Below, piece after piece: positions 1 through 17,984 of a stretch of 19,072 nucleotides of DNA (within the stretch, counting starts at the first letter, position 1; each line of letters begins with the position of its first letter). The translations under genes and the position numbers were made by a program. The stretch lies in the IMG/VR virus record IMGVR_UViG_2663762908_000007; one strand, written 5' to 3'. The DNA is from a virus. Lineage: Duplodnaviria; Heunggongvirae; Uroviricota; Caudoviricetes. The notes under the pieces are model-generated. The model searched no databases and was not told the DNA's origin. It was given only the letters and a program-made list of their open reading frames with translations.

Positions 1-351
1 TTAATCCCACTCAATCCAGTTGTAGACGATACGAAGTGACGGGCGCACAGCGGCAGTCACATCTTCGGTACTAAAGTCGATTGCATCACTGTAGATTTTG
101 CAGTCCAACATTTCAATTGTTGTAGCAGCTTTTGTCACAGCGTTAACCCCGGAAGATTTGGATTCAGGGGTAGCAGCCATCGTGATATCAACATAGTCCT
201 TCGCCGCAATGCGATCCTTGATGAACTGAAGAATATCGCCTTCGATAGTCTCCACGCACTGGACCTGGATTTCCCCAGAGTTTCGAATTGGTCCGTGCTG
301 GTTGAACTTCACACCATTCGGACCATAGTCCTCCACATCCTCGCGAGTCAT
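1..351 (-). CDS. hypothetical protein in the P1-like late/structural block (116 aa from ATG at 351-349; the ORF track starts it at an in-frame GTG at 366-364)
   Basis: Open frame ending with TAA at 3-1. The ATG at 351-349 overlaps the TGA stop of the upstream small ORF (ATGA). Same strand and tight spacing as neighbouring genes. No family recognised. Confidence 0.5.
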   Translation of the reverse strand: MTREDVEDYGPNGVKFNQHGPIRNSGEIQVQCVETIEGDILQFIKDRIAAKDYVDITMAATPESKSSGVNAVTKAATTIEMLDCKIYSDAIDFSTEDVTAAVRPSLRIVYNWIEWD

Positions 352-509
352 TTCAGGGATTTGCACGTACGAACAAGTACACTGATATCTTCATAGCCTG
401 CAAAAGTGAGCTGGAATTCAGAAGATACCAGTCGTTCGCCTTTGGCCGCGTTGGCAGTATAGCGGCCCTTAATAAATTTACGGTTTCCCTTAGTGTTATT
501 GTGCCCCAT
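348..509 (-). CDS. small ORF, 53 aa (MGHNNTKGNRKF...), stop overlaps the start of the downstream ORF
   Basis: ATG at 509-507 preceded by AAGGA with about 6 nt spacing. Its TGA stop (350-348) overlaps the ATG at 351-349, suggesting translational coupling. Below the 60-aa cutoff of the supplied track, found by hand translation. Confidence 0.3.
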   Translation of the reverse strand: MGHNNTKGNRKFIKGRYTANAAKGERLVSSEFQLTFAGYEDISVLVRTCKSLK

Positions 510-520
510 ATAAAATCCTT

Positions 521-985
521 TTACTGGAACGCCCGAACAATATCGGAGCTGTTATATATCGAAGAACCGGTCAACTGGAGGTTGACGGTGTTTTTCAGGA
601 AATGCCCATTGCTGTCCCTGGGCGCATCGAGATCGAAACTTATGTCCTGGATAGCGACATCAATGATGTTGATCCGGCGACCAATGTTTAGCGTCACACG
701 CTCCGGGATTCGACCACCAATACTGGCATCTTTAAGTTCCGGGCTAATCATCGCTGACAATGCGGCGATAGCTCCTGAAACCTCCGTGAATGGGTCAAAC
801 AAAGCGATGAAAGTTACTGGCAGCGTGAAAGTCGGCGGTGTTCCCCCTTCCCAAACCATTAAGCTGTTCCAACGGGCCACCGACGTTGTTTCAGTACCAA
901 CCTGCGCAAAACCACTGAAAGCACCAGCAACAGACCCCATGGACATACCGGTAAACGGCGCTTCCCAATTCTGGGCCATGTTCAT
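521..985 (-). CDS. hypothetical phage-type protein, 154 aa
   Basis: ORF with ATG at 985-983 and a G-rich SD-like sequence about 6-7 nt upstream. Lies in the same minus-strand block downstream of the sheath-like gene. No motif recognised. Confidence 0.5.
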   Translation of the reverse strand: MNMAQNWEAPFTGMSMGSVAGAFSGFAQVGTETTSVARWNSLMVWEGGTPPTFTLPVTFIALFDPFTEVSGAIAALSAMISPELKDASIGGRIPERVTLNIGRRINIIDVAIQDISFDLDAPRDSNGHFLKNTVNLQLTGSSIYNSSDIVRAFQ

Positions 986-1100
986 TGCTGCCCCCTGGCT
1001 GATATATCCGGTAACCTGATACTGAGAGTTCGTTAAAGTAACTTTCAGAAATGGCGATACACCGTCAGCCTGGCTGTAAACCCCATAAGGTATAGGTGCT

Positions 1101-1130
1101 ATTCAAGTTAAAGGCCGGAGTTCTCCGGCC
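1101..1130 (-). terminator. candidate intrinsic terminator/stem-loop after the acidic-protein gene
   Basis: Perfect 8-bp GC-rich inverted repeat GGCCGGAG / CTCCGGCC (1113-1120 and 1123-1130) immediately after the stop at 1138, followed on the minus strand by TTTAACTT. The U-tract is short, so strength is uncertain. Confidence 0.4.
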
Positions 1131-1137
1131 TCCTCCT

Positions 1138-1953
1138 TTAGCCAAGGCGCTTACGGCGCAGTTTCATTGACTTTTTGCGGGCAAGTTTTGCCGCGCCGGT
1201 CTGAGCTTTTCGACGCGCTTTTTTCAGCGCCGATTTTTGAGCCGCAGTCAGACGTTTTTTACTCAGGCGTTTACGGATGAGTTTGATCTCACCGTTACGA
1301 ACAACCTTCTTAAATGCTTCAGTCAGCATTTCATCAGAAGTGCCAGCAACAACAAACGCCGCTTCCAGTTCATCACGGTCGTCGCTATCTAAACCAGCGA
1401 TAGAGGCACCAACATCAGCAGCTGCGTCGTCGTCTTCATCGTCAGCCAGTGCTTCGATCAGGTCATCATCTACACCGCATGCTGCGAGGAAGTCAGCAAC
1501 ATTTGCCCATGCTTCGTTATAGGCATCGTCCTGTTCTTCTGTAACTTCGGAGTCGTCGTCATCAGAGATACCAGCGATAGCCTGAACGAAACCATCAAGG
1601 GAGTCGAAAGTCAGATCACCGCTATCAGCCCAGGCGAAAACGGCGTCGGCCGCATCACTCAACGCATTTTGCATAGCACTTCGATTTGCAGCTTCCAGAA
1701 TCATCTGGTGCGCCTGTTCGACGGTCCATTCTTTACCGTCTTTCCCTTCCAGGATTTGCTCAGGAGCCGGGGCAGATGGAACGTTATCGTTAGTCTGTGC
1801 CGCCGGTTCCGGATTATTATTAATAACCGGATCTGTTGGCGGTTCGGCGCTTGCTCGGGCAGACTCCATCAGCTGCACAGGATCAGAGCTCAAAGCGAAA
1901 CGAGACAGTCCATTCCCCAAAAATGCCCCGGATTGAAAAAAGTTTTTGCTCAT
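1138..1953 (-). CDS. charge-bipolar protein, 271 aa: strongly acidic D/E-rich core with a very basic K/R-rich C-terminal tail of about 50 aa
   Basis: ORF with ATG at 1953-1951 and SD AAGGGA about 7 nt upstream, 9 bp after the stop of the sheath-like gene (operon-like). Composition read directly from the translation (DDDDSEVTEEQDD, DDEDDDAAAD, then KLIRKRLSKKRLTAAQKSALKKARRKAQTGAAKLARKKSMKLRRKRLG). Confidence 0.6.
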   Translation of the reverse strand: MSKNFFQSGAFLGNGLSRFALSSDPVQLMESARASAEPPTDPVINNNPEPAAQTNDNVPSAPAPEQILEGKDGKEWTVEQAHQMILEAANRSAMQNALSDAADAVFAWADSGDLTFDSLDGFVQAIAGISDDDDSEVTEEQDDAYNEAWANVADFLAACGVDDDLIEALADDEDDDAAADVGASIAGLDSDDRDELEAAFVVAGTSDEMLTEAFKKVVRNGEIKLIRKRLSKKRLTAAQKSALKKARRKAQTGAAKLARKKSMKLRRKRLG

Positions 1954-1962
1954 TGTATTCCC

Positions 1963-3552
1963 TTACTTAATAAGCAGCGGTACGCCCTGGATACGACGGG
2001 CTACGCCAGTCGGGCAGCAGGCCCAGACTACTTCCCATTTATCGAATTCCGCCTGCGTAACTTTCAGCACATACGGTTCTGTACCGTCAGCATCAGGATC
2101 ACGAGGAGCCACCAGAGCGCCGGAGGCGACAAAGCGATCTAAAAGTTTGGTCATCCCTTTAGTCAGGCCAGCCGCAGTAATACCGTCCGGGCTATGCTTC
2201 ATCTGTCGGGCTAACTGGACAAAGAAACGGCTGATTGCATTCATCAGGGATGGGACGTGCTGGAAGTGCAGATAGTTATCCTGCGTGCAGCAAGTTAAAG
2301 CATCGTCGATGATCATCTGGCCAGAGGTGCCAACAGATACTTTATTGAGACGGCCCTTGACCATTGCTTCTTCGTCCGGGGTATCTTCCGGATACAGCGG
2401 TTGAATTGACGCACGAGCAATGACGGCACGTTCTTCACCAGCCGGTGAGTAATGCCAACCGCCGACATCAGAGTTTTTCTTGACGCCACGAGCTTTCACC
2501 GCATACGCCACGCCAGACAGACCAAAGACCACACGGGATTGGGTCCATTTGTCTTTGCAGGAGAACGGGTAGTGATAGACAGAACAGCTTACATAATCGG
2601 TACCAAGTAAACCGGTATCCTCAACAGCTGGTAGTGCTTCTGCGTACGTTAATGTCGGTTTGACATCAAAGAAGCCATCAATCAGGCGATCTGCACAGAT
2701 TTTACCTAATGCGGTGATAGCCGCATTGTCATAGCAGCCCAGGCCAAGAACAGCGGTGTACATGTACGGCGCATTGTTCAGAACTTTCACCGCACGCAGG
2801 TACGTAGCGGTTGAGATTTTCGACTGATCGCCGTTGGTACCGCCAGTGAACGCCAACGATTTTTTGTTTGTTACTTTCGCTGTCGAAATCAGCTCTTCAT
2901 TAACAACCGCGCGCAAATATTTAGAACGGGCTTCCAGAGCCGTAGGCAGATAACACAAGCGGCCCATGTCATCTTTCGCTTCTTCCGCCAAAGACACAGT
3001 GTGTGTCTCCAGGGTCGTTACCACGCCGAGCGAAGTCGTCTGGGGCAGTTTTAAGAGGAAGCGTTCATTACCCGCGCTGTCCGCTGTTGCCGTTTCGATG
3101 GTTAACTCACGGGTAGGTGAAATACACGGATCACCATCATCAACGTAGATAGCAAAGGCTTCGCCACTATCAAGTTCAATTTCAGAACCGTATGGCAACG
3201 CACTGTAAGCCGGTTCGCCTGATTCATCGAACATAATAATCGGGAACTTCGCATCATCCGGAACAGCGCGAACAACGTAACCAGACGTTTGCTGAATAGC
3301 TTCGTATACATGGCGAATTGGTTCGAACTGTGAGCCGGAAGACGGCTTCAGCGGTTCGCCGAGAACATCTTCGTAATTGGACTCAGTAACCGCAAGAACA
3401 GTAAACGGCTTGCCACGCGCAAATACGCCAATACCAGCCCACAAGCTGCTATTTAATGCAACACCGGTAGATAACGTCGCATCGGCATTGATCGGGCTAA
3501 CCGCGACGCCGGATGCATTACCTAATGACTGTTGAATTGAATATTGAGACAT
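1963..3552 (-). CDS. phage structural protein, 529 aa, possibly contractile tail sheath (P1 gp22-like)
   Basis: Long ORF with SD AGGGA upstream of the ATG at 3552. The size (about 58 kDa) and a W-x-x-S-P-A-G segment (GGWHYSPAGEE) resemble the conserved W-K-A-P-A-N/G region of myovirus sheath proteins. In P1 the head and tail genes 21-22-23 lie next to par. Assignment is from memory, not a search. Confidence 0.55.
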   Translation of the reverse strand: MSQYSIQQSLGNASGVAVSPINADATLSTGVALNSSLWAGIGVFARGKPFTVLAVTESNYEDVLGEPLKPSSGSQFEPIRHVYEAIQQTSGYVVRAVPDDAKFPIIMFDESGEPAYSALPYGSEIELDSGEAFAIYVDDGDPCISPTRELTIETATADSAGNERFLLKLPQTTSLGVVTTLETHTVSLAEEAKDDMGRLCYLPTALEARSKYLRAVVNEELISTAKVTNKKSLAFTGGTNGDQSKISTATYLRAVKVLNNAPYMYTAVLGLGCYDNAAITALGKICADRLIDGFFDVKPTLTYAEALPAVEDTGLLGTDYVSCSVYHYPFSCKDKWTQSRVVFGLSGVAYAVKARGVKKNSDVGGWHYSPAGEERAVIARASIQPLYPEDTPDEEAMVKGRLNKVSVGTSGQMIIDDALTCCTQDNYLHFQHVPSLMNAISRFFVQLARQMKHSPDGITAAGLTKGMTKLLDRFVASGALVAPRDPDADGTEPYVLKVTQAEFDKWEVVWACCPTGVARRIQGVPLLIK

Positions 3553-3567
3553 AACTTTCCCTGTTAT

Positions 3568-3586
3568 GCGCCCCGCACGGGGGCGC
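3568..3586 (-). other. intergenic GC-rich stem-loop between the 205-aa ORF and the sheath-like gene
   Basis: GCGCCCC-gcacg-GGGGCGC, a 7-bp perfect stem, 26 bp after the stop at 3613 and just upstream of the RBS of the 529-aa gene. No clear U-tract, so it may be a processing or attenuation element rather than a terminator. Confidence 0.35.
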
Positions 3587-3612
3587 TATGTTAAACGGAG
3601 AACTTCCCCTGA

Positions 3613-4230
3613 TTACTCAGAGTCACCGGCATCAATCGTGTCGCCGCTTATGAAGTTAAGCCCGCCTTTTTTGGCCATTGTCAGCGTTACACGAGTGAAG
3701 TAATCAGCGCCGTTGCGTGGGTGCATATCGTTGATAGCCGAACCCCACAGCGTGCTACGGTTGACCAGCGCCGGAGTGGTCGGATGCTGGAACGGGATGG
3801 CCGGGACAGCATCACCAGTCACGAAGCCTGCTTTACCCGGATTTTCATCACGGACGTAGCACAGCACATCCATCGAGCTGAACTGAATGTTCTCAGTCGT
3901 TAAGTTCTTACAAATACCAGCAGGTACTTCGTACACTTTCACGTTACCGAACAGGGTACCGATGTAGTGAACATACGGAGTCTGGATATAGTCTTCGGCT
4001 GGCTGGAAGAAATCCTTCGGCAACTGTTTGAAGAAAGATGCTGCATCAGCACCAGCAAACATCCCCATCGCACCAGAAGATTTAACGCGCTCAATAATGT
4101 CGCGATATACAGTCTGGAATTTGCCACGAATGATGGTTGCCCATACATCAAAGGACTGGTTAACCGGCAGAGCGATGTCAAAGGTGTCGGTCGCAAGAGT
4201 GCGCCAGATCATGATGCGAAGACGCAGCAT
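3613..4230 (-). CDS. 205-aa ORF, probably the C-terminal part of a major head protein (P1 gp23-like); in the same frame as the upstream 360-aa ORF, separated only by a TAA
   Basis: ATG at 4230-4228 has AGGA only 1 nt upstream, a poor RBS. The frame is continuous with ORF 4237-5319 except for the TAA at 4239-4237 (...EYLSH * QD MLRLR...). Confidence 0.5.
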   Translation of the reverse strand: MLRLRIMIWRTLATDTFDIALPVNQSFDVWATIIRGKFQTVYRDIIERVKSSGAMGMFAGADAASFFKQLPKDFFQPAEDYIQTPYVHYIGTLFGNVKVYEVPAGICKNLTTENIQFSSMDVLCYVRDENPGKAGFVTGDAVPAIPFQHPTTPALVNRSTLWGSAINDMHPRNGADYFTRVTLTMAKKGGLNFISGDTIDAGDSE

Positions 4231-4236
4231 ATCCTG

Positions 4237-5319
4237 TTAATGAGACAGGTATTCCTTCAGGGTGCGGAACTGTAGGGAACCCAGGTCTAGACCAAATTCA
4301 CGCTGTGCTTCATACGCCGCCTGTACCGTGTGCTCAGCCGCGATAACGAACTGACTTGGGAACAGGGTGTATTTCTTCATTTCGTGGTTGATCAGCGGGA
4401 TCAGCTCAGGAGCGGCTTCAATATTGATTTCCGTCTCAATTGCGATCTCAGTGCCTTTATCCGGCGCTTTGGAGAACGACAGGGCAATCTGACCAATGTT
4501 GTAGTTCAGAGAGCAGGTAACAGTGATTTGCTCACCAGCAGCATTAGTAAACGAGTGAAGTAGGCTGCCGGAACCGTTATCAACAACAGACTTAATACGG
4601 TTAACGTAGATGTTAGTACGACCTTTTCGGATTGGCACATTCTGGCCTTCGAAGTCTTCCATCTTGAAGGTTGCGGTTTTGCTGGTGCCATCGGAGCTTG
4701 CCACCAGCACATAGCGGCGACGTAACTGGCTGTACACACCGACGGATTGCATGTCCAGAACATCACCAGCAGCATAAGAACCAAAAGAGGAACCTGCCAC
4801 GTTAAAGACTTCATAGATGTCGGACTGGTCACGCGTAACCGGAATGAAGGTACACGCATCAGCGGTAGCTGCCCCCAACTGAACAGGCAGGATCATCGCG
4901 AGGAATAAAGGCAGACGCATAACACCGTCAGAAACGCTCATCATCTCTGCTGCGACGGATTCCAGCATCGCTTTATTAGTGGCATCCATGCTATTGCGGG
5001 TGGACTCAATCAGGCAGTTTTCCAGCGTCTGGTGGCAGGAGGTCAGAATTTCCGAACGCGGCATAGATTTATGTGCTGCGGCGTAGTCAGCCAGTGCACT
5101 TGCCCACGCTGTAGCGATTTGAGCGGTGGCATTATCAGAGATACCCGCAAAAATCGGGTCTTTACGTGCAGCTTCAAGGATAGATGCGGCACGCGCGGCA
5201 TCATCTTTAATGAATTGGTTATCAGTACCGAACTGCGCAGTGCTTGCCCAGCCAAGCACAGCTTTAGAGCGTTTTGCGATATCTGCAATACGATTCTGGT
5301 ATTCGCGTAAGTTACTCAA
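4237..5319 (-). CDS. 360-aa ORF, probably the N-terminal part of a major head protein (P1 gp23-like) with an Ala-rich helical N-terminal region
   Basis: TTG start at 5319-5317 with SD AAGGAAGAG about 5 nt upstream. It is the first gene downstream of parS, where P1 carries gene 23. Combined with ORF 3613-4230 it gives about 568 codons, matching a roughly 62 kDa head precursor. Confidence 0.55.
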   Translation of the reverse strand: MSNLREYQNRIADIAKRSKAVLGWASTAQFGTDNQFIKDDAARAASILEAARKDPIFAGISDNATAQIATAWASALADYAAAHKSMPRSEILTSCHQTLENCLIESTRNSMDATNKAMLESVAAEMMSVSDGVMRLPLFLAMILPVQLGAATADACTFIPVTRDQSDIYEVFNVAGSSFGSYAAGDVLDMQSVGVYSQLRRRYVLVASSDGTSKTATFKMEDFEGQNVPIRKGRTNIYVNRIKSVVDNGSGSLLHSFTNAAGEQITVTCSLNYNIGQIALSFSKAPDKGTEIAIETEINIEAAPELIPLINHEMKKYTLFPSQFVIAAEHTVQAAYEAQREFGLDLGSLQFRTLKEYLSH

Positions 5320-5344
5320 TTTACTCTTCCTTAAACATAAGGCA

Positions 5345-5530
5345 CTTGTGTGAATCCCTTTTCGGAAGAGATTTTATTGAAAGTCACTTGTTGACTTTCT
5401 CGCGAAAAGTAATTTTTTAAATTTTTTGTGCGGGGAAGTGGACGGTGAATGCAGGCGTTAAATCGTGGGAATTTCAGTCTGAAATTCTCCTAAAAAACAC
5501 ATGCAAATCATAATGTTAGCAATGAAATTG
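5345..5530. promoter_or_regulatory. parS: candidate parS centromere (ParB binding site) downstream of parB
   Basis: Located where P1 parS lies, directly after parB. Contains the heptamer palindrome GAATTTCAG-t-CTGAAATTC (5469-5487), further TGAAAT/GTGAAT-like heptamers (5350, 5446, 5523), an AT-rich tract (5411-5428) that could be the IHF site, and a second palindrome GAAAGTCA-cttgt-TGACTTTC (5380-5400). Confidence 0.45.
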
Positions 5531-5583
5531 GTGCAGGACATTTTAGGAAGGGGAGGGGCTAACACCACCTCCCACCAGCGGGA

Positions 5584-6549
5584 TTATTCCCCAGCAGACA
5601 TTTTCCCAATGATTTTTTTTATTGCTTCGTCAATTTCAGTTTGCACTTCAGACGGGAGTCTAGAGAACTCGTAGGCGACAACCCGTTTTTTCGGATCGGA
5701 CTTCTTTCGAGCATATTGGCGACGGTCAGAGAAGTCTCGCAGCTTCTCAACCACCACAGATTTAACCGGCGCGGGCTTCAGGCTTTTGCTTTCCGCTTGG
5801 AAGATAGCCAGTATCTTCGCTTTATCCTCTTGCGCGCCCTCAGTCTCTGCAATTCGTTCGCGCACCGTATCAACCAGCTCTTCAATAGGCACGCTTTTAG
5901 CGTTGGCATCCTCGGAGATCTGGAGCAGTAACTGGTAATCTGGCAGGGCGAGATCGCTGGCAACAGGGAAGACAGCAATCATCTCATCCGGCACCGCTGC
6001 CGCCTGGAACGCGCGCGTAACTTTAGCCTTTGAAATGTTCTCAGCGCGGGCGATCTCTTCTTTGGTCATGCTCTTACCATACATAACCTCGAAGCGTTTA
6101 CCCAGTTCGCGCAGGGTGTGTTCGCGGGCTGTCTGGATATCAATGGCCAGCTGGCGTGCATCCGCCAGGCTGATCTCATCTTTCGTCACCAGAATCTCAA
6201 ATTTCGTTTCATTGAAGATACACGCAGCGCGGCGACGTGATCCGTCCAATACCTCAATGCGCTCCCCAACCATACGACCAATAGCCGGGAAGAACTGTTG
6301 CAATTTAATGGTGCGGGAAATATCGCTTACCGACTCAGGGGTGAGCAGAGACTGATCGCGGCCGTTAACTGCCGGGTCAACGAACGTGCGCGACTCAATC
6401 TCACCACTCAGCACAACGGTAAGCAAAAATTTAGCCTGGCGGCCAGATTTTAGGGTAAAGGTTTTGGTGCCTTCACTGCCTTCAAGCATGCGAGCAAACT
6501 CGGAGCTATTCTTGCCCAGCACTCGTCCACGGGAAACTATTTTTTTCAT
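5584..6549 (-). CDS. parB: partition protein ParB (type Ia, P1 family), 321 aa
   Basis: The translation carries the ParB signature EVLDGSRRR and an HTH region, and aligns by eye with P1 ParB but is clearly divergent. It overlaps parA by 4 bp (ATGA). Confidence 0.9.
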   Translation of the reverse strand: MKKIVSRGRVLGKNSSEFARMLEGSEGTKTFTLKSGRQAKFLLTVVLSGEIESRTFVDPAVNGRDQSLLTPESVSDISRTIKLQQFFPAIGRMVGERIEVLDGSRRRAACIFNETKFEILVTKDEISLADARQLAIDIQTAREHTLRELGKRFEVMYGKSMTKEEIARAENISKAKVTRAFQAAAVPDEMIAVFPVASDLALPDYQLLLQISEDANAKSVPIEELVDTVRERIAETEGAQEDKAKILAIFQAESKSLKPAPVKSVVVEKLRDFSDRRQYARKKSDPKKRVVAYEFSRLPSEVQTEIDEAIKKIIGKMSAGE

Positions 6550-7757
6550 GCCGCCTCACCCCTAACAAACTCAATTCGATCAAACACAGCCTTAGTGAAA
6601 CGCTCGGCCTCGGTTCGTGCCTTCTTCAGCGCCTCTGCACTGCCTGGATACGATTGCGGGTTGGCACTGATTACGGTGTCGAAAGACTCGCCGCATCGCT
6701 CAAATCCATCCAGACGAGGCAGAGAAGAGTCCAGAATGTTGCTGGCGTAAACCTCACGCGCAAGGCTGTGTGATGTCTCGTGATCGCGCTTGCCGGTCAT
6801 CTTCGACATAAAACCAATGCTGGCGCTTAAACGCGGTTCTACGCCTTCCTCCTCCAGTTGCTCCAGCATTTCTGGCAGACGGGTGAGATATTTCAGTGTT
6901 GAGTGGAAGTCAACCTGGGCTGGTGGGGTAGGGGTAAGCAGCAAATCGCTGGCCGCCAGACCGTTGAGCAGGAACGGATCCAGGTGTGGGCCGGTATCAA
7001 TAAAGATAAAGTCATAATCATCCGCAACACGATCAATGATATTGCGTCGAAGGATTTCGTACTGATTTTGTCCGGGAAGATGCTCTTCAACCAGCTCTTT
7101 CCATTGGCTGGCAACAAAGCCATCGTCGATAGAGGCTGGAATCACGTCTACGCCAGGAACGATGGTCGGACGAATCACCTCTTTGCGTAGCGTCTCCGCG
7201 TCCAGGTCGTTCAGCATCGCCTGCGCGGCGGTTTCCAGGATGGAACCAATACTGTGAGTATGGTCGAGGAACATTGTGCTGGATGCCTGAGGGTCAAGGT
7301 CAATTACCAGAATGCGCAGATCGTGACGCAGTAAATCCTGATGCACACGCAGAGCGTGCGCCAACGTGACTGTGGAAACCGTTTTGGATACGCCACCCTT
7401 CAGGTTTACGACAAAAATAACGTAAGGCGATTTGTGAATGTCGCGATATTTTGGGATCTTACGGTGGGCATAGATATCAATGACGTTCTGGATGGTCAGC
7501 GCGTACTGTTCAACGTTACCGACCTGTTTCTTGTTGAACTGGTACCCATTATCTTCCATCTCTTTGATGGCCTGCTCCACAATGCGGCGGCTCAGCTTCG
7601 GCAACTTTGCCACAGCGTTACGAGTGAACGTCTGATAATACTCGGTCTGATTGAACTCTTTGCGCTGCTCTTCAATATCCTGACTCATGGCCTTAAGTAA
7701 TGCGCTTGCACGAAGAGCTATGGTGCCGACACCGCCGTAATCGCGTTTCATCATCAT
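6546..7757 (-). CDS. parA: partition ATPase ParA (type Ia, with N-terminal regulatory extension), 403 aa
   Basis: Deviant Walker A NLKGGVSKTVST, and the motifs ILVIDLDPQ and RLDGFERCGESFDTVISANP, typical of the P1 ParA family. Sits upstream of parB. Confidence 0.92.
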   Translation of the reverse strand: MMMKRDYGGVGTIALRASALLKAMSQDIEEQRKEFNQTEYYQTFTRNAVAKLPKLSRRIVEQAIKEMEDNGYQFNKKQVGNVEQYALTIQNVIDIYAHRKIPKYRDIHKSPYVIFVVNLKGGVSKTVSTVTLAHALRVHQDLLRHDLRILVIDLDPQASSTMFLDHTHSIGSILETAAQAMLNDLDAETLRKEVIRPTIVPGVDVIPASIDDGFVASQWKELVEEHLPGQNQYEILRRNIIDRVADDYDFIFIDTGPHLDPFLLNGLAASDLLLTPTPPAQVDFHSTLKYLTRLPEMLEQLEEEGVEPRLSASIGFMSKMTGKRDHETSHSLAREVYASNILDSSLPRLDGFERCGESFDTVISANPQSYPGSAEALKKARTEAERFTKAVFDRIEFVRGEAA

Positions 7758-7866
7758 CTCCTTATCATTTCGTATGAGTGAATTGTACGTTTGATTCTGC
7801 TACGTGCAACTTTCTTTGATTCGTGCGTCAATTATTGCACGTAAAGAAATGGCGATGAGGCTATTA
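7758..7866 (-). promoter_or_regulatory. parAB promoter/operator region (inferred)
   Basis: Intergenic region upstream of parA with the inverted repeat ACGTGCAA (7802-7809) / TTGCACGT (7835-7842). Type Ia ParA proteins autoregulate at an operator overlapping their promoter. Confidence 0.4.
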
Positions 7867-8119
7867 GATGTGTGCTGGAGGGATGATGCAGGACCAGAAT
7901 GTGCGATAGAGGGAAGTCGCATTGAATTATGTGCTGTGGAGGGATCGCTGGTATCAAATATGTGTGCTGGAGGGAAAGGCAGAGAATTACATGTGCACTG
8001 GAGGGAAAAACGGATGGACAGATGTGTGCTGGAGGGAAAGTCTGGGCAAACTGCGGGGCGTCCCCCTCCAGCGCACATCAAAAACAGGAAATTGGACAAG
8101 CCTTCCCTCCAGCACACAC
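7867..8119. repeat. incA: incA-like iteron array downstream of repA (about 8 copies of the P1-type 19-bp iteron, 6 in one orientation and 2 inverted)
   Basis: Copies of GATGTGTGCTGGAGGGAAA or close variants at 7867, 7898 (degenerate), 7928, 7960, 7991 and 8021, and inverted copies (CCCTCCAGC[A/G]CACAT) at 8061 and 8101. The last abuts the repA stop codon. Confidence 0.85.
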
Positions 8120-8980
8120 TTATTCTGGGAGTTTCAGCTTTGGATTGCGAGAATGGACGATTACAAAACTTTCCCGGCCTTTCTTCTCAATTGAACAGTC
8201 GAGATAGCCGATTGTTTTAAGCTGTTCTATCGCTTTCTTAATGATACGGTTTTGCTCGCCAACAGCTGACTGCAAAGCCAGGCGCTCACGGATTCGGGCG
8301 AAAGATAGCGGCAACGGATTCTGCGGAAGGCTTTCGATGAAAGTGTAAATGGCTTGTGCAGCTTCTTTCTTCGGAAGGGCACGCAAGGCGTGGTGTTGCA
8401 ACAGAACGCGATAATCAAGCTGGAACAGCTCCCACAGCTTCGAATCAGCCTCCAGTTCTATCAGATCAAGGTCAGCATCAAAACGCCCGACCTTCAGCAG
8501 ACCAGTCTGATAGCCGCCTTTAGCATCTTTTCCGCGCTTAAAAGCGATACCCTTGTTACGCAAGCGTCCAAGTGATTCATGAATGGTTAAACGCAGTTTC
8601 GCATCCAGACGTTTTGAGGGGAAACCACAGGCTTTAGCGAATTCCTGAAACGATAACTGGATGGTGTTTGAGGACAAGCCGTATTTGCTGAACGCGTAGA
8701 TGACACCGATCCACGTTTTGAAATCAGTATCCATATCGAGTCGAGGACCGGTGATTTTAATATCATCGTAACCCTCGGCTTTAGCTATCTCCAGCTGGGA
8801 AAACGCTTTGGTGGCATCAATCTCTTTACTTTCTCCTTTGCTCTTTGATGGCTTCGGAACGAATACCCCCAAGCGCATCAACGCTACAGGCTGCACAGTG
8901 TTGTTTGAATTAACTGTTAGTTCTTTTGCCTTACTTTCAATGTCTGCGTAAAGAATATCGGATATAAATGATTGATTCAT
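8120..8980 (-). CDS. repA: iteron-binding replication initiator RepA (P1 R-replicon type), 286 aa
   Basis: An ORF of the P1 RepA length, flanked upstream by five direct iterons and downstream by the iteron array, which is the diagnostic incC-repA-incA arrangement. Confidence 0.92.
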   Translation of the reverse strand: MNQSFISDILYADIESKAKELTVNSNNTVQPVALMRLGVFVPKPSKSKGESKEIDATKAFSQLEIAKAEGYDDIKITGPRLDMDTDFKTWIGVIYAFSKYGLSSNTIQLSFQEFAKACGFPSKRLDAKLRLTIHESLGRLRNKGIAFKRGKDAKGGYQTGLLKVGRFDADLDLIELEADSKLWELFQLDYRVLLQHHALRALPKKEAAQAIYTFIESLPQNPLPLSFARIRERLALQSAVGEQNRIIKKAIEQLKTIGYLDCSIEKKGRESFVIVHSRNPKLKLPE

Positions 8981-9036
8981 ATTACTTTTTCCGAATTATG
9001 TGGATAGTTTTTATAAGTGATGATAACTACCCAGGC

Positions 9037-9140
9037 TTTCCCGTCAGCACACATCCTATATCCCGCCAGCACACATTAGCAACCCGTCAGCACACATTTT
9101 TATCCCTCCAGCACACATCGGTTTCCCTCCAGCACACATC
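9037..9140. repeat. incC: incC-like origin iterons (5 direct copies, about 21-bp spacing) containing the repA promoter region
   Basis: CC[C/G][T/C]CAGCACACAT copies at 9037, 9061, 9081, 9101 and 9122, all in the same orientation, immediately upstream of the repA start. Confidence 0.85.
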
Positions 9141-9178
9141 GCGATACACTTCTAAGCCAGACGTGGCGCGGCCTGCAA

Positions 9179-9257
9179 CGATCAGGGATCTATATGGATC
9201 TAATTGGGATCTGTATGGACCTAATTATTGGATCTACTCAGTGGATAATGTGGATAA
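9179..9257. other. oriR core elements: cluster of five GATC (Dam) sites plus two tandem DnaA boxes
   Basis: GATC at 9180, 9187, 9197, 9208 and 9231 within GGATCT-type heptamer repeats. TGTGGATAA (9249-9257) is a perfect DnaA box and AGTGGATAA (9240-9248) has one mismatch. A further TGTGGATAg lies at 8999-9007 between incC and repA. This matches the known P1 oriR architecture. Confidence 0.7.
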
Positions 9258-9260
9258 GTG

Positions 9261-9284
9261 AAAAACCGGCCAACAAAGCCGGTT
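9261..9284 (-). terminator. intrinsic terminator after the truncated gene, insulating oriR
   Basis: On the minus strand AACCGGC-tttgttg-GCCGGTT followed by TTT, a 7-bp stem with a U-run, 15 bp after the stop at 9301-9299. Confidence 0.5.
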
Positions 9285-9298
9285 GGAAGGAAGCTGTA

Positions 9299-9658
9299 TT
9301 ATTCTATGCTTTCGATGAGAAGACCATGTTCATAACATTTAAGCTCATCGCCTTCGTACAGGAATTGGTATCCAATACCACCATCTTCATGGACATTAGG
9401 GAATAACTCATAACTCACTGAAGAGCAAATCACACCAATACAGCGATCAACGCCTTCTCGTTCTTCAGTGCTGAAAAAATCCTCTTCAGTAAGAACATGA
9501 GTACATTGCTCATCAGCATAGGTCGGAAATACATGCTCAATGCAATCCGGGTGTTTTAAACCAAGCTGATCGGCAAGCTCGAAAGCACGACGGTATTGTT
9601 CAGATCCTGGCTTGCCAACAGTGATTTGCTCAATTTTGTAGATTGAAGTCGCTTTGTT
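9299..9658 (-). pseudogene. 5'-truncated ORF (119 codons, no start) interrupted by the IS911-like element
   Basis: Frame open from the IS boundary at 9658 to the TAA at 9301-9299 (...VGKPGSEQYRRAFELADQLGLKHPDCIEHVFPTYADEQC...YEHGLLIESIE). No initiation codon is present because the frame runs into the IS left end at 9659. Absent from the supplied track. Confidence 0.5.
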
Positions 9659-9976
9659 TGAAGTGGCACACTGAATTTGGCCACCTGAACAGAGGTGATA
9701 TGCTCACCTCAGAACAACACAGGTGCTCCAATGAAAAAAAGAAATTTCAGCGCAGAGTTTAAACGCGAATCCGCTCAACTGGTTGTTGACCAGAAATATA
9801 CGGTGGCAGATGCCGCCAAAGCTATGGATGTTGGCCTTTCCACAGTGACAAGATGGGTCAAACAACTGCGTGATGAGCGTCAGGGCAAAACACCAAAAGC
9901 CTCTCCGATAACACCAGAACAAATCGAAATACGTGAGCTGAGGAAAAAGCTACAACGCATTGAAATGGAGAATGAA
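9659..9976 (+). mobile_element. IS911-like (IS3 family) left end: terminal inverted repeat plus the 5' part of orfA
   Basis: Starts with TGAAGTGGCACACTGAATTTGG, the IS3-family terminal TG...CA structure and the IS911 end as I recall it. orfA ([21 protein letters not shown]...) follows at 9731. Identity to IS911 ends at 9976. Confidence 0.8.
9731..9976 (+). CDS. IS3-family transposase OrfA (IS911 InsN-like), 3' end replaced by foreign sequence
   Basis: The translation [82 protein letters not shown] is an HTH plus leucine-zipper OrfA. The track ORF begins 12 codons early at 9695, and its tail ([13 protein letters not shown]) is not OrfA. Confidence 0.75.
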
Positions 9977-10070
9977 TCTACAGCGGCTTTTTTTTTAATA
10001 TGTCCCGTTCGTCGGTAACCCGTTTCAGCTCTTTCTGGAGACGGCGGATCTCGGCCTGAGCATCTGACTG
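9977..10070 (-). mobile_element. fragment of a second, different IS3-family orfA in inverted orientation (contig end)
   Basis: The reverse complement translates to [30 protein letters not shown], the leucine-zipper region of another IS3-family OrfA, joined head-to-head to the IS911 orfA at a shared ATATTAAAAAAAG-like motif. Confidence 0.5.
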
Positions 10071-10099
10071 NNNNNNNNNNTTTCGGCCCCGGTTCTCTT

Positions 10100-10726
10100 T
10101 TATTTCTGCTTCGTTAACGTGTCATAACTGGTCATCAAATTACGATAATCAGGAATGTGGTTAGAGAACAACGTCGCCAGTCCTTCAATATCATTACGCC
10201 AGTCGCGATGCAGCTCGCACGCCACGCCGAACCATGTCATCAATTGCGCACCAGCTTGCGACAAGCGATCCCATGCCGAATGCCGGGTAATTTCATTAAA
10301 GGTCCCTGACGCGTCAGTCACGACAAAGACGTCAAACCCTTCTTCAATGGCTGAAAGCGCCGGGAATGCCACGCAAACTTCGGTTACCACACCGGCAATA
10401 ATTAACTGTTTTTTACCTGTCGCTTTGACAGCTTTTACAAAATCTTCGTTATCCCAGGCGTTAATATTTCCCGGGCGAGCAATGTAAGGTGTATCGGGGA
10501 ATTGTGCTTTCAGTTCTGGAACTAATGGGCCGTTAGGACCGGTTTCAAAACTGGTGGTAAGAATAGTTGGTAAGTTGAAATACTTAGCCAGGTCACCCAG
10601 CGCCAGCACGTTATTTTTAAACTTATCGGGTTCGATATCCCGTACAAGGGAAAGTAAACCAGCCTGGTGATCAACAAGCAAAACGGCAGCATCATTTTTA
10701 TCAAGACGAACATACGGTTTGGTCAT
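10100..10726 (-). CDS. ycaC: isochorismatase-family hydrolase YcaC, 208 aa
   Basis: The translation matches E. coli YcaC as I recall it (MTKPYVRLDKNDAAVLLVDHQAGL...), including the cysteine of the catalytic triad in the VTEVCV region. Confidence 0.9.
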   Translation of the reverse strand: MTKPYVRLDKNDAAVLLVDHQAGLLSLVRDIEPDKFKNNVLALGDLAKYFNLPTILTTSFETGPNGPLVPELKAQFPDTPYIARPGNINAWDNEDFVKAVKATGKKQLIIAGVVTEVCVAFPALSAIEEGFDVFVVTDASGTFNEITRHSAWDRLSQAGAQLMTWFGVACELHRDWRNDIEGLATLFSNHIPDYRNLMTSYDTLTKQK

Positions 10727-11039
10727 CCTCTTCTCCTTTCGAGAGTCAGTGGTACGTCTGAAATCGATCAGACGCGATGCATTGCTCTGAAAGCATAGAC
10801 GGGAAATATGAGTTTGCTGTGACCATGAAATTTTTCGACTGAACGAAGCGTATGAAATTTGTGTTAGTTCAATAAAAACAATCAGATGAGACTAATCATC
10901 TCTTCAGCATTAGCGTTATGAATGAGTAATATAAATCGATAATACCGCCGCTGGGATATCGCGTATTTTCACCCATTGACAATGTTTTTGGCGGTGGCAT
11001 GATGCGCATGAAATTTGAACTTCCTCACGGTTTTAATTC

Positions 11040-12188
11040 ATGTCCACGTATACCCAGCCTGTCATGCTTTTGCTGTCTGGCCTGCTTTTGTTGACTCTGG
11101 CGATTGCGGTGTTAAATACACTCGTGCCGCTTTGGCTCGCCCAGGAACACATGTCCACATGGCAGGTAGGCGTTGTCAGCTCATCCTATTTTACCGGCAA
11201 CCTTGTCGGTACATTGCTGACAGGGTATGTCATTAAGCGCATTGGCTTTAACCGCAGCTATTATCTGGCCTCCTTCATTTTTGCCGCTGGCTGTGCCGGC
11301 CTTGGCCTGATGATTGGATTCTGGAGCTGGTTGGCTTGGCGTTTTGTCGCGGGCGTCGGCTGTGCCATGATTTGGGTGGTTGTTGAGAGCGCGCTGATGT
11401 GCAGTGGGACGTCACGTAACCGTGGGCGTTTGCTTGCTGCGTATATGATGGTTTATTACGTGGGAACGTTTTTAGGCCAGTTACTGGTCAGCAAAGTTTC
11501 AACCGAGCTGATGTCCGTATTGCCGTGGGTTACAGGTTTGACGTTGGCAGGGATCTTACCGCTGTTGTTTACGCGTGTGCTGAATCAGCAGGCTGAAAAC
11601 CATGATTCGACGTCAATTACGTCAATGCTAAAACTCCGTCAGGCGCGGCTTGGCGTGAATGGCTGCATTATCTCAGGAATCGTTCTGGGATCTCTATATG
11701 GCCTGATGCCGCTGTACCTCAATCACAAAGGGGTGAGCAATGCCAGCATTGGTTTCTGGATGGCGGTACTGGTCAGTGCGGGTATCCTTGGACAATGGCC
11801 GATTGGACGTCTGGCGGATAAGTTTGGTCGACTGCTGGTGTTGCGTGTTCAGGTCTTTGTCGTCATTCTCGGCAGTATCGCGATGCTTAGCCAGGCGGCG
11901 ATGGCCCCAGCGTTATTCATCCTCGGTGCCGCTGGCTTTACGCTATATCCGGTGGCGATGGCATGGGCTTGCGAGAAAGTTGAACATCATCAACTGGTGG
12001 CGATGAACCAGGCCTTACTGTTGAGCTATACTGTGGGAAGTCTGCTTGGCCCGTCATTTACCGCTATGCTAATGCAGAATTTCTCCGATAATTTATTGTT
12101 TATCATGATCGCCAGCGTATCGTTTATCTATTTGCTGATGCTGCTGCGCAACGCCGGTCATACGCCGAAACCCGTTGCTCACGTGTAA
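11040..12188 (+). CDS. ycaD: MFS transporter YcaD, 382 aa
   Basis: A 12-TM-like hydrophobic profile, matching E. coli YcaD. Divergent from ycaC as on the E. coli chromosome. Confidence 0.9.
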
Positions 12189-12397
12189 ATGAATTCAAGC
12201 AGAGTGTGAACTTACTGTTTCACACTCTGCTTTTTTGTTTCTTCTATCTGACTTGCTTTATTCCAAATTTTATTCGTTTAAAAATAAAATGTGCAGCAGG
12301 TTATAATTTTGCATTTCGCTATTTCCGCACTTCTTATTTGCCGCGCATAATCCCTCGTTTTACAGATGCCCCTTTAATTTTGGCGAAGGATTTGTCT

Positions 12398-13828
12398 ATG
12401 GCTGGGAATGTTCAGGAAAAACAGTTGCGATGGTACAACATTGCGCTGATGTCTTTTATCACTGTCTGGGGTTTTGGCAACGTTGTTAATAACTATGCCA
12501 ACCAGGGGCTGGTGGTTGTTTTTTCATGGGTGTTTATCTTTGCACTCTATTTCACACCTTATGCGCTAATTGTTGGTCAGTTAGGCTCGACCTTCAAAGA
12601 TGGGAAGGGCGGGGTCAGTACCTGGATTAAACACACGATGGGACCCGGACTGGCTTATCTCGCCGCGTGGACCTACTGGGTGGTGCATATTCCCTATCTG
12701 GCACAAAAACCCCAGGCAATTCTGATTGCGCTCGGTTGGGCGATGAAAGGCGACGGTTCGCTAATCAAAGAATATTCAGTCGTAGCGTTACAGGGGTTAA
12801 CGCTGGTGCTGTTTATCTTCTTTATGTGGGTTGCTTCACGCGGTATGAAATCGCTGAAAATCGTCGGTTCTGTGGCAGGGATTGCTATGTTTGTTATGTC
12901 GCTCCTGTATGTGGCGATGGCGGTAACCGCGCCTGCAATTACTGAAGTGCATATTGCGACCACAAACATTACCTGGGAAACGTTCATTCCTCATATCGAC
13001 TTTACCTACATTACCACTATTTCAATGCTGGTTTTCGCGGTTGGCGGAGCAGAGAAGATTTCTCCTTACGTTAATCAAACGCGCAACCCAGGAAAAGAAT
13101 TTCCAAAAGGGATGTTATGCCTGGCGGTGATGGTTGCGGTTTGTGCCATTCTGGGCTCGCTGGCGATGGGGATGATGTTTGATTCGCGTAATATCCCGGA
13201 TGACTTAATGACCAACGGTCAGTATTACGCCTTTCAGAAGCTGGGCGAGTATTACAACATGGGTAATACTTTAATGGTGATTTACGCCATTGCGAATACC
13301 CTGGGACAAGTAGCGGCGCTGGTATTCTCGATTGATGCCCCGCTTAAAGTGCTATTAGGTGATGCTGACAGCAAATATATTCCAGCCAGTTTATGTCGTA
13401 CCAACGCTTCTGGTACGCCCGTTAATGGCTATTTTCTGACCCTGGTACTGGTGGCGATTCTGATTATGCTGCCGACTCTCGGCATTGGTGATATGAACAA
13501 TCTCTATAAATGGCTGTTGAACCTTAATTCGGTAGTGATGCCGCTGCGTTATTTATGGGTATTTGTTGCATTTATTGCAGTCGTTCGCTTGGCGCAGAAA
13601 TATAAACCAGAATATGTCTTTATTCGTAATAAGCCTCTGGCAATGACCGTCGGGATTTGGTGTTTTGCCTTTACCGCCTTTGCCTGTTTGACGGGGATCT
13701 TCCCGAAAATGGAAGCCTTCACTGCAGAGTGGACCTTCCAGTTGGCGCTGAATGTTGCAACGCCGTTTGTGCTGGTAGGATTAGGACTGATATTCCCGCT
13801 GCTGGCGCGTAAAGCGAATAGTAAATAA
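12398..13828 (+). CDS. ycaM: APC-family amino-acid transporter YcaM, 476 aa
   Basis: The track ORF starts at 12206, but the conserved protein starts at the ATG at 12398 (MAGNVQEKQLRWYNIALMSF...). A polytopic membrane protein. Confidence 0.88.
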   Translation: MAGNVQEKQLRWYNIALMSFITVWGFGNVVNNYANQGLVVVFSWVFIFALYFTPYALIVGQLGSTFKDGKGGVSTWIKHTMGPGLAYLAAWTYWVVHIPYLAQKPQAILIALGWAMKGDGSLIKEYSVVALQGLTLVLFIFFMWVASRGMKSLKIVGSVAGIAMFVMSLLYVAMAVTAPAITEVHIATTNITWETFIPHIDFTYITTISMLVFAVGGAEKISPYVNQTRNPGKEFPKGMLCLAVMVAVCAILGSLAMGMMFDSRNIPDDLMTNGQYYAFQKLGEYYNMGNTLMVIYAIANTLGQVAALVFSIDAPLKVLLGDADSKYIPASLCRTNASGTPVNGYFLTLVLVAILIMLPTLGIGDMNNLYKWLLNLNSVVMPLRYLWVFVAFIAVVRLAQKYKPEYVFIRNKPLAMTVGIWCFAFTAFACLTGIFPKMEAFTAEWTFQLALNVATPFVLVGLGLIFPLLARKANSK

Positions 13829-14069
13829 TTATTGTGGTCGGTGACGCTGACTCTGGCAGATCTGACCCGTTTTTACATAATCGAGAAATGCGCGCAAGCC
13901 GCAGGACATATACTGGCGGTTTGGATAATAGATCTGGAAGCCTGGACGCTCTGTGCTCCAGTCTTCCAGTACACATTCTAAACGACCAGTATCAAGGTAC
14001 TCCTTGATCTGTTCATAGAGCAGATACCCGATACCAGCACCCATCAAAACGGCCTCCAGTTCAGCATCA
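13829..14069 (-). pseudogene. ycaN: 3' remnant (about 80 codons) of the LysR-type regulator gene ycaN, truncated at an IS1 terminus
   Basis: The translation (...LEAVLMGAGIGYLLYEQIKEYLDTGRLECVLEDWSTERPGFQIYYPNRQY...) is a LysR substrate-binding-domain C-terminus. The frame runs directly into the IS1 end at 14070. The gene neighbours ycaM in E. coli. Confidence 0.7.
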
Positions 14070-14134
14070 GGTGATGCTGCCAACTTACTGATTTAGTGTA
14101 TGATGGTGTTTTTGAGGTGCTCCAGTGGCTTCTG
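14070..14134 (+). mobile_element. IS1 terminal inverted-repeat end (contig ends inside IS1)
   Basis: GGTGATGCTGCCAACTTACTGATTTAGTGTATGATGGTGTTTTTGAGGTGCTCCAGTGGCTTCTG is the canonical IS1 terminus. Confidence 0.85.
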
Positions 14135-14144
14135 NNNNNNNNNN

Positions 14145-14277
14145 AGTCGCGGATGAATATGACCAGCCGACGTCCGATATCACGAAGGATAAATGCAGCA
14201 AATGCCTGAGCGGCTGTAAGTTTCGCAATAACGTCGGCAACTTTGGCGGCTTCCTTTCCATTAACAAACTTTCGCAG
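14145..14277 (+). CDS. L: lambdoid tail-tip protein L-like C-terminal fragment (internal to a 133-bp contig)
   Basis: The only open frame gives VADEYDQPTSDITKDKCSKCLSGCKFRNNVGNFGGFLSINKLSQ, a cysteine cluster consistent with the Fe-S-binding C-terminus of lambda gpL. Assignment is from memory only. Confidence 0.45.
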
Positions 14278-14320
14278 NNNNNNNNNNTCCTGAATGATTA
14301 AAGCAGCATAATCCCGCAAG

Positions 14321-14396
14321 GGGTCGTTAGCTCAGTTGGTAGAGCAGTTGACTTTTAATCAATTGGTCGCAGGTTCGAATCCTGCACGACCCACCA
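14321..14396 (+). tRNA. tRNA-Lys (anticodon UUU), complete with CCA
   Basis: GGGTCGTTAGCTCAGTTGGTAGAGCAGTTGACTTTTAATCAATTGGTCGCAGGTTCGAATCCTGCACGACCCACCA is identical to the E. coli tRNA-Lys(UUU) as I recall it. The anticodon loop is CTTTTAA. Confidence 0.95.
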
Positions 14397-14542
14397 GTTT
14401 TAACATCAAACTCAGATGTTAAGCGTGAAGGATAACGTTACGCCAGCAACGGCCCGTAGGGCGAGCGAAGCGAGTCATCCTGCACGAGCCACCAATTTTA
14501 AAGATTGGTTCCGAGTAGAAATCTTTCAGGTAACACCCATAT

Positions 14543-14607
14543 GGGTCGTTAGCTCAGTTGGTAGAGCAGTTGACTTTTAATCAATTGGTCGCAGGTTCGA
14601 ATCCTGC
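14543..14607 (+). tRNA. second tRNA-Lys (UUU) copy, 3' end cut by the N run
   Basis: Identical to the first copy over its first 65 nt and ends at the gap at 14608. The tandem arrangement matches the E. coli lysT-type tRNA operon. Confidence 0.85.
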
Positions 14608-14617
14608 NNNNNNNNNN

Positions 14618-14733
14618 CATCATAGATGCCGCCGTTCATCGCCATCTGCACCTGACCCTGACTATTAATATCCGCCAGCAGAGCATGTAACGTTCCCCAC
14701 GCTTCGCCATTGGCTTTTTGCCAGTACATTTTC
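14618..14733 (-). CDS. unassigned coding fragment, probably prophage-derived
   Basis: Only one of six frames is open across the whole 116-bp contig (KMYWQKANGEAWGTLHALLADINSQGQVQMAMNGGIYD). No confident family assignment. Confidence 0.3.
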
Positions 14734-14743
14734 NNNNNNNNNN

Positions 14744-14971
14744 TGACTGCTCCTGCTCACCGGTCCGGAACACCACCGTGACGCCGGATATATTGGTATT
14801 CCCCTCACTGTCCAGCACCGGCGTACTGTTCAGCAGCACGCTTTTTAATCCGTCCACCGGACCTTCAACCGGCCCTTCGCTGATGGCATCGATCACACTC
14901 AGCAGCTGCGTGGACTTCAGGTTGTCCTTCGCTTCGCGCGGGGTATGCCCCTTACTGCTGCCTTTACCCAT
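14744..14971 (-). CDS. J: lambdoid central tail fibre / host-specificity protein J, N-terminal 76 codons
   Basis: MGKGSSKGHTPREAKDNLKSTQLLSVIDAISEGPVEGPVDGLKSVLLNSTPVLDSEGNTNISGVTVVFRTGEQEQ matches the lambda J N-terminus nearly residue for residue. SD GAGGA lies upstream. Confidence 0.8.
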
Positions 14972-15249
14972 TCCTCACGCTNNNNNNNNNNTATTAACAG
15001 AGACCGTAGCCCGACGGGGAACTCCTTCTGCGAGAGTGTGCGGGAATAATCAAAAACGATGCACACCGGGTTTTTACCGCGTTTATGGTTCGCGGGTTTG
15101 TCCCTCATGCTCGCCAGTCCTGTGCGGGGGTGGAAGAAACAGGACACTTACACAGATTCTTGTGGGCACGATGCTATGCCTTTCTGGATTATCCCGATGC
15201 CATTCATGCAAGGCGTTGTATCAGACGTTCGTCAGAGCTGTCAGGCTGA

Positions 15250-15468
15250 CGGGTCCTCCCGGTGGGGTGGCCTGCCACGGGGCGGGAGCGTCGCGGGTTT
15301 TCGCTATTTATGAAAATTTTCCGGTTTAAGGCGTTTCCGTTCTTCTTCGCCGTAACTTACTGTTTTTATTTAAAACACCCCCTGAAAAGAAAGGAAACGA
15401 CAGGTGCTGAAAACAGGCCTTTTGGCCTCTGTCGTTTCCTTTCTCTGTTTTTGTCCGTGGAATGAACA
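15250..15468 (+). other. cos: lambdoid cos region (cosQ, cosN, cosB) upstream of nu1
   Basis: ACGGGGCGGGAGCGTCGCGGGTTTTCGCTATTTATGAAAATTTTCCGGTTTAAGGCGTTTCCGTTCTTCTTCG... is collinear with the lambda left end, but the 12-nt cohesive-end segment reads GGGCGGGAGCGT here versus GGGCGGCGACCT in lambda as I recall it. Confidence 0.7.
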
Positions 15469-15677: not shown

Positions 15678-15754
15678 NNNNNNNNNNCGTTCGTGTCCGT
15701 AAAACTGGCGTAATCATGGCCCTTCGGGGCCATTTTCTCTCTGTGGAGGAGTCC

Positions 15755-16124: not shown

Positions 16125-16134
16125 NNNNNNNNNN

Positions 16135-16874: not shown

Positions 16875-16884
16875 NNNNNNNNNN

Positions 16885-17359: not shown

Positions 17360-17369
17360 NNNNNNNNNN

Positions 17370-17550: not shown

Positions 17551-17560
17551 NNNNNNNNNN

Positions 17561-17974: not shown

Positions 17975-17984
17975 NNNNNNNNNN

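Follow-up and report, generated by a model that had tools for sequence, protein, structure and literature searches.

A nonsense mutation in gene 23, the major capsid protein gene, of a P1-like block that probably forms part of an IncY plasmid

Results

The P1-like contig and its boundaries

We analysed a 19,072-nucleotide stretch of DNA (the window; IMG/VR record IMGVR_UViG_2663762908_000007), which carries a region that matches P1-like elements at 98-99% identity by megablast. The window is a scaffold with 13 runs of exactly 10 N (for example at 10071-10080 and 14135-14144), and positions 1-10070 are the only stretch that forms a single true contig with the gene under study. Beyond this contig, positions 10081-14134 hold the chromosomal genes ycaC-ycaD-ycaM, with a sequence that many E. 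coli chromosomes match at 100% identity, and positions 14145-19072 are a string of small repeat contigs that include lambda J fragments and a tRNA-Lys gene. Chromosomal integration of the P1 block (the longest record is 4.67 Mb) was considered and rejected, as in every public assembly different sequences adjoin the P1 contig, set apart from it by 10-N spacers. Any inference from gene neighbourhood past position 10070 would be wrong, since unrelated contigs have been joined there.

Insertion sequences bound the P1 homology at both ends. On one side an IS1 terminus is found 69 nt beyond window position 1, and homology to P1 ends approximately 27 nt before this terminus, at P1 coordinate ~53412 between bplB and pmgF. 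On the other side an ISEc52-like fragment of the IS3 family fills 9659-10070 and interrupts upfA at P1 coordinate 63309, leaving that gene (9299-9658) without its first 33 nt. All of the P1 genes described here, and the late promoter, are on the minus strand.

Between these boundaries the maintenance genes are in good order. parB (5584-6549) and parA (6546-7757) are intact and identical in length to the versions found on IncY plasmids, and repA (8120-8980) is intact and 98.9% identical to that of P1. No disabling change was found in parB, parA or repA, and the contig carries an IncY-type maintenance module consisting of repA/oriR and parAB/parS.

The late genes lie on the other side of parS. 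[quoted passage not shown] Gene 23 follows at 3613-5319, between gene 22 and parS and behind the Lpa-dependent late promoter LP23, the same arrangement as in P1. The original prediction had likened the gene to P1 gene 23 next to par, and parB and parA do lie beside it in the window. Both the -22 box and the -10 element of LP23 (5371-5389) are identical to P1, as is the ribosome-binding region of gene 23.

Not all of the essential late genes in the block are intact: gene 23 carries a nonsense codon, bplB a frameshift, and pmgG has lost its annotated start. The changes outside gene 23, the upfA truncation among them, emerged on comparing the contig with P1 and a further five or six relatives. 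In the bplB pseudogene (1-509) a single nucleotide is deleted between positions 364 and 365 (P1 gene position 146), shifting the frame after about residue 48. In pmgG (521-1102) the start codon annotated in P1 is changed from ATG to ATA (1102-1100), and the longest remaining ORF is 154 aa (521-985). In P1, pmgG is an essential tail gene, and the virion contains BplB, which resembles the T4 tail tube (PMC9024508).

The status of pmgG depends on where its translation begins. We considered whether a short pmgG is simply normal for this sublineage; the start codon is ATG in all six relatives compared and ATA is a private change, with an effect that hinges on which start is the real one. The loss is a lesion only if the ATG annotated in P1 is truly used. 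The remaining ORF compares with 193 aa for the annotated gene, and PGAP also calls shorter pmgG ORFs in relatives.

Gene 23 is a single reading frame interrupted by an ochre codon

Gene 23, which encodes the major capsid protein of P1, spans 568 codons plus a terminal TAA and is interrupted at codon 361. The upstream fragment (codons 1-360; 4237-5319) begins with TTG and encodes 360 aa ending in KEYLSH. The downstream fragment (codons 364-568; 3613-4230) is an ORF that opens at an internal methionine codon, ATG, and encodes 205 aa beginning MLRLR. The whole gap between these two same-frame ORFs consists of the TAA (4239-4237) and the sense codons CAG GAT (4236-4231), so that translation across the junction reads KEYLSH, stop, QD, MLRLR. 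When the sequence and translations were re-read, the ORF coordinates, shared frame, stop and two sense codons first reported for this locus all proved exact.

Alignment of the 1,707 nt of the window gene with gene 23 of P1 (NC_005856, 57067-58773) is gapless, with 13 substitutions and 99.2% nucleotide identity. Given this alignment, the arrangement of the two ORFs is not a chance one. The substitutions comprise eight synonymous changes, four missense changes (V56I, P89S, A93T and T522S) and one nonsense change. This last, a G to T transversion at window position 4239 that converts GAA (Glu361) to TAA (4237-4239), is the sole disruptive difference from P1. The two genes otherwise have in common their length, the TTG start, LP23, the E120|S121 processing site and their place before parS. 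Codon 361 is GAA in P1, OP279344, ZYB62, pNDM-M121, pINF102.6, p2EC1-3 and pCRST022. Full-length colinear homology identifies the product as a P1-type gp23, and where an uninterrupted ORF of about 565-640 codons would be expected for such a protein the frame is broken by the TAA at codon 361.

To place the junction in a wider context we collected 81 homologues, down to 29% identity, from a search of 5.8 billion proteins and built an alignment of 27 full-length representatives, which are 543-638 aa long and span 30-94% identity. This was the check called for by the original prediction, namely whether homologues are single ORFs spanning the junction, and all 27 are, each continuing for at least 187 residues beyond it. 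Column 361 lies within a conserved SHExDMxRL motif and is occupied by Glu in 26 of the sequences and by Asp in the remaining one. Gene 23 coding sequences of identical length are also annotated in P1, RCS47, JL22 and several plasmids. Consistent with this, a single profile, PHROG 1014 (567 positions), covers both halves, the 5' fragment matching positions 3-372 (E = 5e-152) and the 3' fragment positions 376-567 (E = 7e-88).

The apparent signals for a second gene have a ready explanation. The downstream "start" is the conserved Met364, and the "Shine-Dalgarno" sequence, an AGGA ending 1 nt before the ATG at 4230, is made up of the conserved Gln-Asp codons. Independent initiation at this ATG had been judged unlikely at the outset, and the unfavourable 1-nt spacing together with the coding origin of the AGGA bears this out. 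The option of two separate genes, which the original prediction had left standing, is refuted by the unsplit homologues and the shared profile, while its principal proposal of a P1-type head protein gene split by one in-frame TAA is upheld by the gapless alignment. On the sequence evidence, positions 3613-5319 are one P1-type gene 23 with a nonsense mutation.

The ochre allele is real and private to one lineage

We next evaluated whether the TAA is present in the cell or was introduced during sequencing. The exact 360-aa and 205-aa fragments were found in a collection of 15 billion proteins, in 23-24 contigs (41-43 index blocks) drawn from NCBI, Logan and ENA; Logan re-assembles raw reads independently. 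Eleven NCBI assemblies were returned (GCA_0014129xx to GCA_0014138xx), each of which encodes both exact fragments. In a nucleotide comparison of ten loci from ten of these assemblies, window positions 1-10004 (up to 10070) were 100% identical. The contig ends differ slightly among the ten, which indicates separate de novo assemblies.

That the stop is a sequencing or assembly error, with the gene intact in the cell, is a suspicion raised by the fragmented draft character of the scaffold, with its 13 N spacers, and by the origin of the NCBI occurrences, all of which come from one WGS series. Against this, the same base is seen in ten loci, each from an assembly with its own contig ends, the two fragments are encoded by an eleventh assembly, they are recorded from Logan and ENA as well, and the site (CAT TAA CAG) lies outside any homopolymer. 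A base-call error, raised as an option when the split gene was first noticed, is thus very unlikely given the recurrence of the exact fragments across assemblies and across three sources.

All of the assemblies shown belong to the series JRRJ-JRSP, and three of them have a flank in common whose 5.6 kb are 100% identical. Given these identical flanks, the TAA-bearing strains look clonal, and the many occurrences of the allele may represent one lineage rather than independent events. To look beyond this series we used a 55-mer centred on the T of the mutation, designed such that every 28-nt megablast seed word must include that base. It had no match among 72,556 PLSDB plasmids or 20,395 complete E. 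coli records. Gene 23 itself, at 90% identity or above, is present in 776 PLSDB plasmids and in 772 of 5,426 complete E. coli genomes (775 records). None of these roughly 1,500 plasmid and E. coli records with gene 23 has the TAA allele, which is thus restricted to a single lineage.

Predicted consequence for the capsid protein

The gp23 protein of P1 is the major capsid protein of the virion and is cut between E120 and S121 to give a mature form of 448 residues (PMC9024508). Its fold is of the HK97 type, supplemented by an I-domain, and the first ~120 residues at the N terminus are scaffold-like (PMC12810830). In the solved P1 heads (PDB 9ukm, 9vl4) it is a single chain of 568 aa, and P1 gp23 matches the 9ukm chain with E = 0. 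Pfam returned no family at E <= 0.01 for gp23 or for either fragment. The cleavage site (AMLE|SVAAEMM) is present in the translation of the window gene at residues 117-127, and the early proposal of a head precursor processed by a protease agrees with the published cleavage of P1 gp23 (PMC9024508) and with this LE|SVAAEM site.

We used an AF2 model of a full-length homologue with 94% identity (mean pLDDT 70.8) for local secondary structure only, as the predicted domain arrangement is loose. Residue 361 falls inside a 27-residue helix (347-373) of this model, which we read as the likely spine helix. Foldseek returned the P1 head structure 9ukm as the best fold match to the model, with low TM-scores (0.33-0.42) that reflect the loose arrangement of the domains.

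The 5' fragment contains the scaffold-like region (1-120) and the cleavage site; under the domain order of PMC12810830, residues 121-360 would supply the N-arm, a portion of the P-domain and also the I-domain. The 3' fragment carries the latter half of the putative spine helix together with the A-domain and what remains of the P-domain, as judged from its PHROG match and from the position of known contact residues. Those that hold the A-domains together (R405-D425, K551 and D563; bioRxiv 10.1101/2025.11.26.689930) all lie downstream of the stop: R405, D425, K551 and D563 are each encoded in the 3' fragment. The single-chain HK97 fold with its spine helix, A-domain and P-domain is not encoded in one piece by the TAA allele, whose stop falls within a helix of the AF2 model. 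Truncated gp23 should therefore fail to form capsomers, and its capsid function would be lost.

The block is colinear with an IncY resistance plasmid

The closest relative of the contig is pCRST022 (NZ_AP045782.1, 87,315 bp, E. coli); an 8980 bp comparison of the two shows 13 substitutions and is free of gaps. Colinearity with this plasmid extends over the whole window contig at 99.6-99.9% identity and includes the junction between upfA and the IS3-family fragment, and in the assembly L008 the contig runs on into Dyp-peroxidase/encapsulin genes just as pCRST022 does. pCRST022 also carries the bplB deletion of the window, annotated by PGAP as "frameshifted". It differs from the window in having GAA at codon 361 of gene 23 and an intact pmgG ATG, and its bplB is followed by IS421 whereas the window contig has IS1.

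pCRST022 is an IncY multidrug-resistance plasmid with CTX-M-15, TEM-1, qnrS1, a class 1 integron, mph(A), mer, tet(A) and a clpK heat-resistance island. Genes of P1 origin that could be recognised in its annotation are limited to the block, hokD, a truncated repL and phd/doc. The same annotation lists no portal, terminase, tail-fibre or lysis gene, and no other phage morphogenesis gene was seen in it.

Relics of this kind are found elsewhere. The 64 kb IncFIB/IncY plasmid p2EC1-3 (NZ_CP047574.1), which carries a fimbrial operon, has an IS-flanked P1 relic running from bplB to repA in a non-phage plasmid. Its gene 23 is cut by an IS3-family insertion whereas that of the window is broken by a point mutation, and its IS junction beyond repA corresponds to window position 9376 rather than 9658. 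A similar relic block is present in pINF102.6.

Private substitutions in the late genes of the window comprise 14 synonymous and 9 missense changes. Given that they are mostly synonymous, either the relaxation of selection on the late genes is recent or the polarisation of the substitutions is coarse.

Discussion

These data allow us to propose, with a probability that we put at roughly 90%, that the gene 23 nonsense mutation lies in a P1-like leftover of about 10 kb which provides a pCRST022-related plasmid with its IncY module for replication and partition, and that the gene is decaying there unselected. On this account a P1-like phage-plasmid would have lost most of what made it a phage and lived on as an IncY plasmid, retaining a block (bplB-pmgG-21-22-23-parS-parB-parA-repA-oriR-upfA') bounded by IS1 and the IS3-family fragment. 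The late genes beside the replicon would have been carried along without selection and begun to decay. The bplB frameshift probably came first, given that pCRST022 has it too, with the gene 23 nonsense mutation and the loss of the pmgG start arising later in the TAA lineage. [quoted passage not shown]

The original prediction also offered the nonsense mutation as the event that made a phage-plasmid defective for virion formation. The nonsense mutation itself stands; its part as the cause of the defect probably does not, in view of the IS-bounded relic, its further lesions and its colinearity with pCRST022. We infer that the remaining phage genes are probably absent from the TAA-bearing strain, whose scaffolds are contigs joined in arbitrary order. 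The element was very probably no longer a phage before gene 23 mutated, and for this reason the mutation is probably not what disabled it. In the P1 amber mutant collections of Walker and Walker, head formation is reportedly abolished when a head gene carries just one nonsense codon. Those mutants are laboratory amber (TAG) derivatives of an otherwise complete phage, whereas the allele described here is a natural ochre (TAA) in a degraded relic.

We considered whether the truncated protein has been kept for a new role, for example to poison the capsid assembly of superinfecting P1-like phages, whose Lpa would activate LP23. Truncated gp23, with its scaffold region, N-arm and I-domain but no A-domain, might co-assemble with the capsid protein of the incoming phage as a dominant-negative poison and so make the relic a plasmid-borne anti-phage decoy. 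The P1-identical promoter and ribosome-binding region, and an N-terminal scaffold-like region and cleavage site that are intact, would suit such a function. However, among all the gene-23-bearing records searched, the allele occurs in a single set that looks clonal, no sign of selection for the truncated form was found, and the neighbouring late genes are plainly degenerate. We regard both the new role and the dominant-negative mechanism behind it as highly improbable.

Readthrough of the stop, through an ochre suppressor tRNA or leaky termination, would have to yield enough full-length gp23 for a working phage. Ochre suppressors exist in E. coli, including some derived from lysT, and one might be encoded elsewhere in the genome. 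However, the sole tRNA in the window is a tRNA-Lys with the wild-type UUU anticodon, and TAA is generally the most efficiently terminated stop codon in E. coli. A programmed recoding event would be expected to leave the stop conserved among relatives, but the TAA-centred 55-mer had no match in PLSDB or in complete E. coli genomes and all 27 homologues have Glu or Asp at this column. Given that bplB is frameshifted in the same contig and that the closest relative is, by its annotation, without the remaining phage genes, reading through one codon would not restore a phage, and we consider this explanation extremely unlikely.

Finally, it can hardly be entertained that the two ORFs are genuine genes, or that ribosomes terminate and then re-initiate at the ATG 6 nt downstream to give a functional split capsid protein: an ATG two codons after the stop with AGGA close by makes some coupled re-initiation conceivable, but no split homologue was seen among the 27 diverse sequences or the close relatives inspected, both signals are conserved codons of gp23 with an unfavourable spacing, and the break is predicted to fall within one helix of a single fold.

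The preferred reading, a gene 23 pseudogene in a P1-derived IncY module, is an ordinary one, since both the disrupted gene and this kind of P1-derived plasmid are already well described, and no open biological question hangs on it. In genome annotation the two ORFs should become one entry marked as a gene 23 pseudogene, and it would be wrong to count the contig as an intact P1-like prophage or phage-plasmid. The locus provides a small but clear case of how P1-derived IncY resistance plasmids keep the late genes adjacent to their replicon while losing them mutation by mutation.

Contig structure of the window

The window is a scaffold in which 14 contigs follow one another in arbitrary order. 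It contains 13 N runs, each of exactly 10 N (10071-10080, 14135-14144, 14278-14287, 14608-14617, 14734-14743, 14982-14991, 15678-15687, 16125-16134, 16875-16884, 17360-17369, 17551-17560, 17975-17984 and 18186-18195). The identical P1 contig (1-10070) has ten different neighbours across ten sister NCBI assemblies. Gene neighbourhood across these spacers is meaningless.

The genes ycaC, ycaD and ycaM are chromosomal and lie on a contig of their own (10081-14134), which is 100% identical to many E. coli chromosomes from pig and cattle, is closed by an IS1 terminus (14069-14134) and is unrelated to the P1 block. The remainder (14145-19072) is a chain of short contigs of ~120-700 nt each, probably collapsed repeats put at the scaffold end. 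These include a tRNA-Lys(UUU) (14321-14396) and, on the minus strand, two pieces of a lambda-type tail tip protein J (14636-14971 and 17289-18140). Three ORFs in this region (14718-15329, 15617-16156 and 16135-17325) are likely artefacts, given that they run across N spacers and had no NCBIfam match.

The P1 block and its closest closed relative

The 87 kb IncY plasmid pCRST022 (NZ_AP045782.1) is the nearest closed relative of the P1 block. This plasmid carries CTX-M-15, TEM-1, qnrS1, dfrA12-aadA2-sul1, mph(A), mer and tet(A), along with an encapsulin/Dyp-peroxidase pair and a heat-resistance island (clpK/sHSP20); from P1 it still has phd/doc and a truncated repL. The window shares its upfA junction (9299-10070), at which upfA, missing its first 33 nt, adjoins a fragment of an IS3-family (ISEc52-like) transposase. 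Past the identical junction in pCRST022 lie the genes for the Dyp-peroxidase and the encapsulin.

Two further changes lie in bplB and pmgG. In bplB (1-509, minus strand), which encodes a tail-tube-like virion protein, a 1-nt deletion between 364 and 365 shifts the frame past approximately residue 48. As pCRST022 has the same deletion, it is older than the nonsense mutation in gene 23, the P1 major capsid gene. The other change is at the P1-annotated start of pmgG, an essential gene of the baseplate/tail-tube junction: the window has ATA (1100-1102, minus strand) where all six relatives compared keep ATG. Its effect depends on the true start, the P1-annotated codon or an internal ATG that would give a 154-aa ORF (521-985).

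Finally, parA and parB (5584-7757) and the parS region (5403-5583) are of a specificity type other than that of P1. The parA gene shares ~64% nucleotide identity with P1 and parB is hardly alignable. On either side, gene 23 and repA are 98-99% P1-like, so the partition module (parA, parB and the parS region) has been swapped as a mosaic unit.
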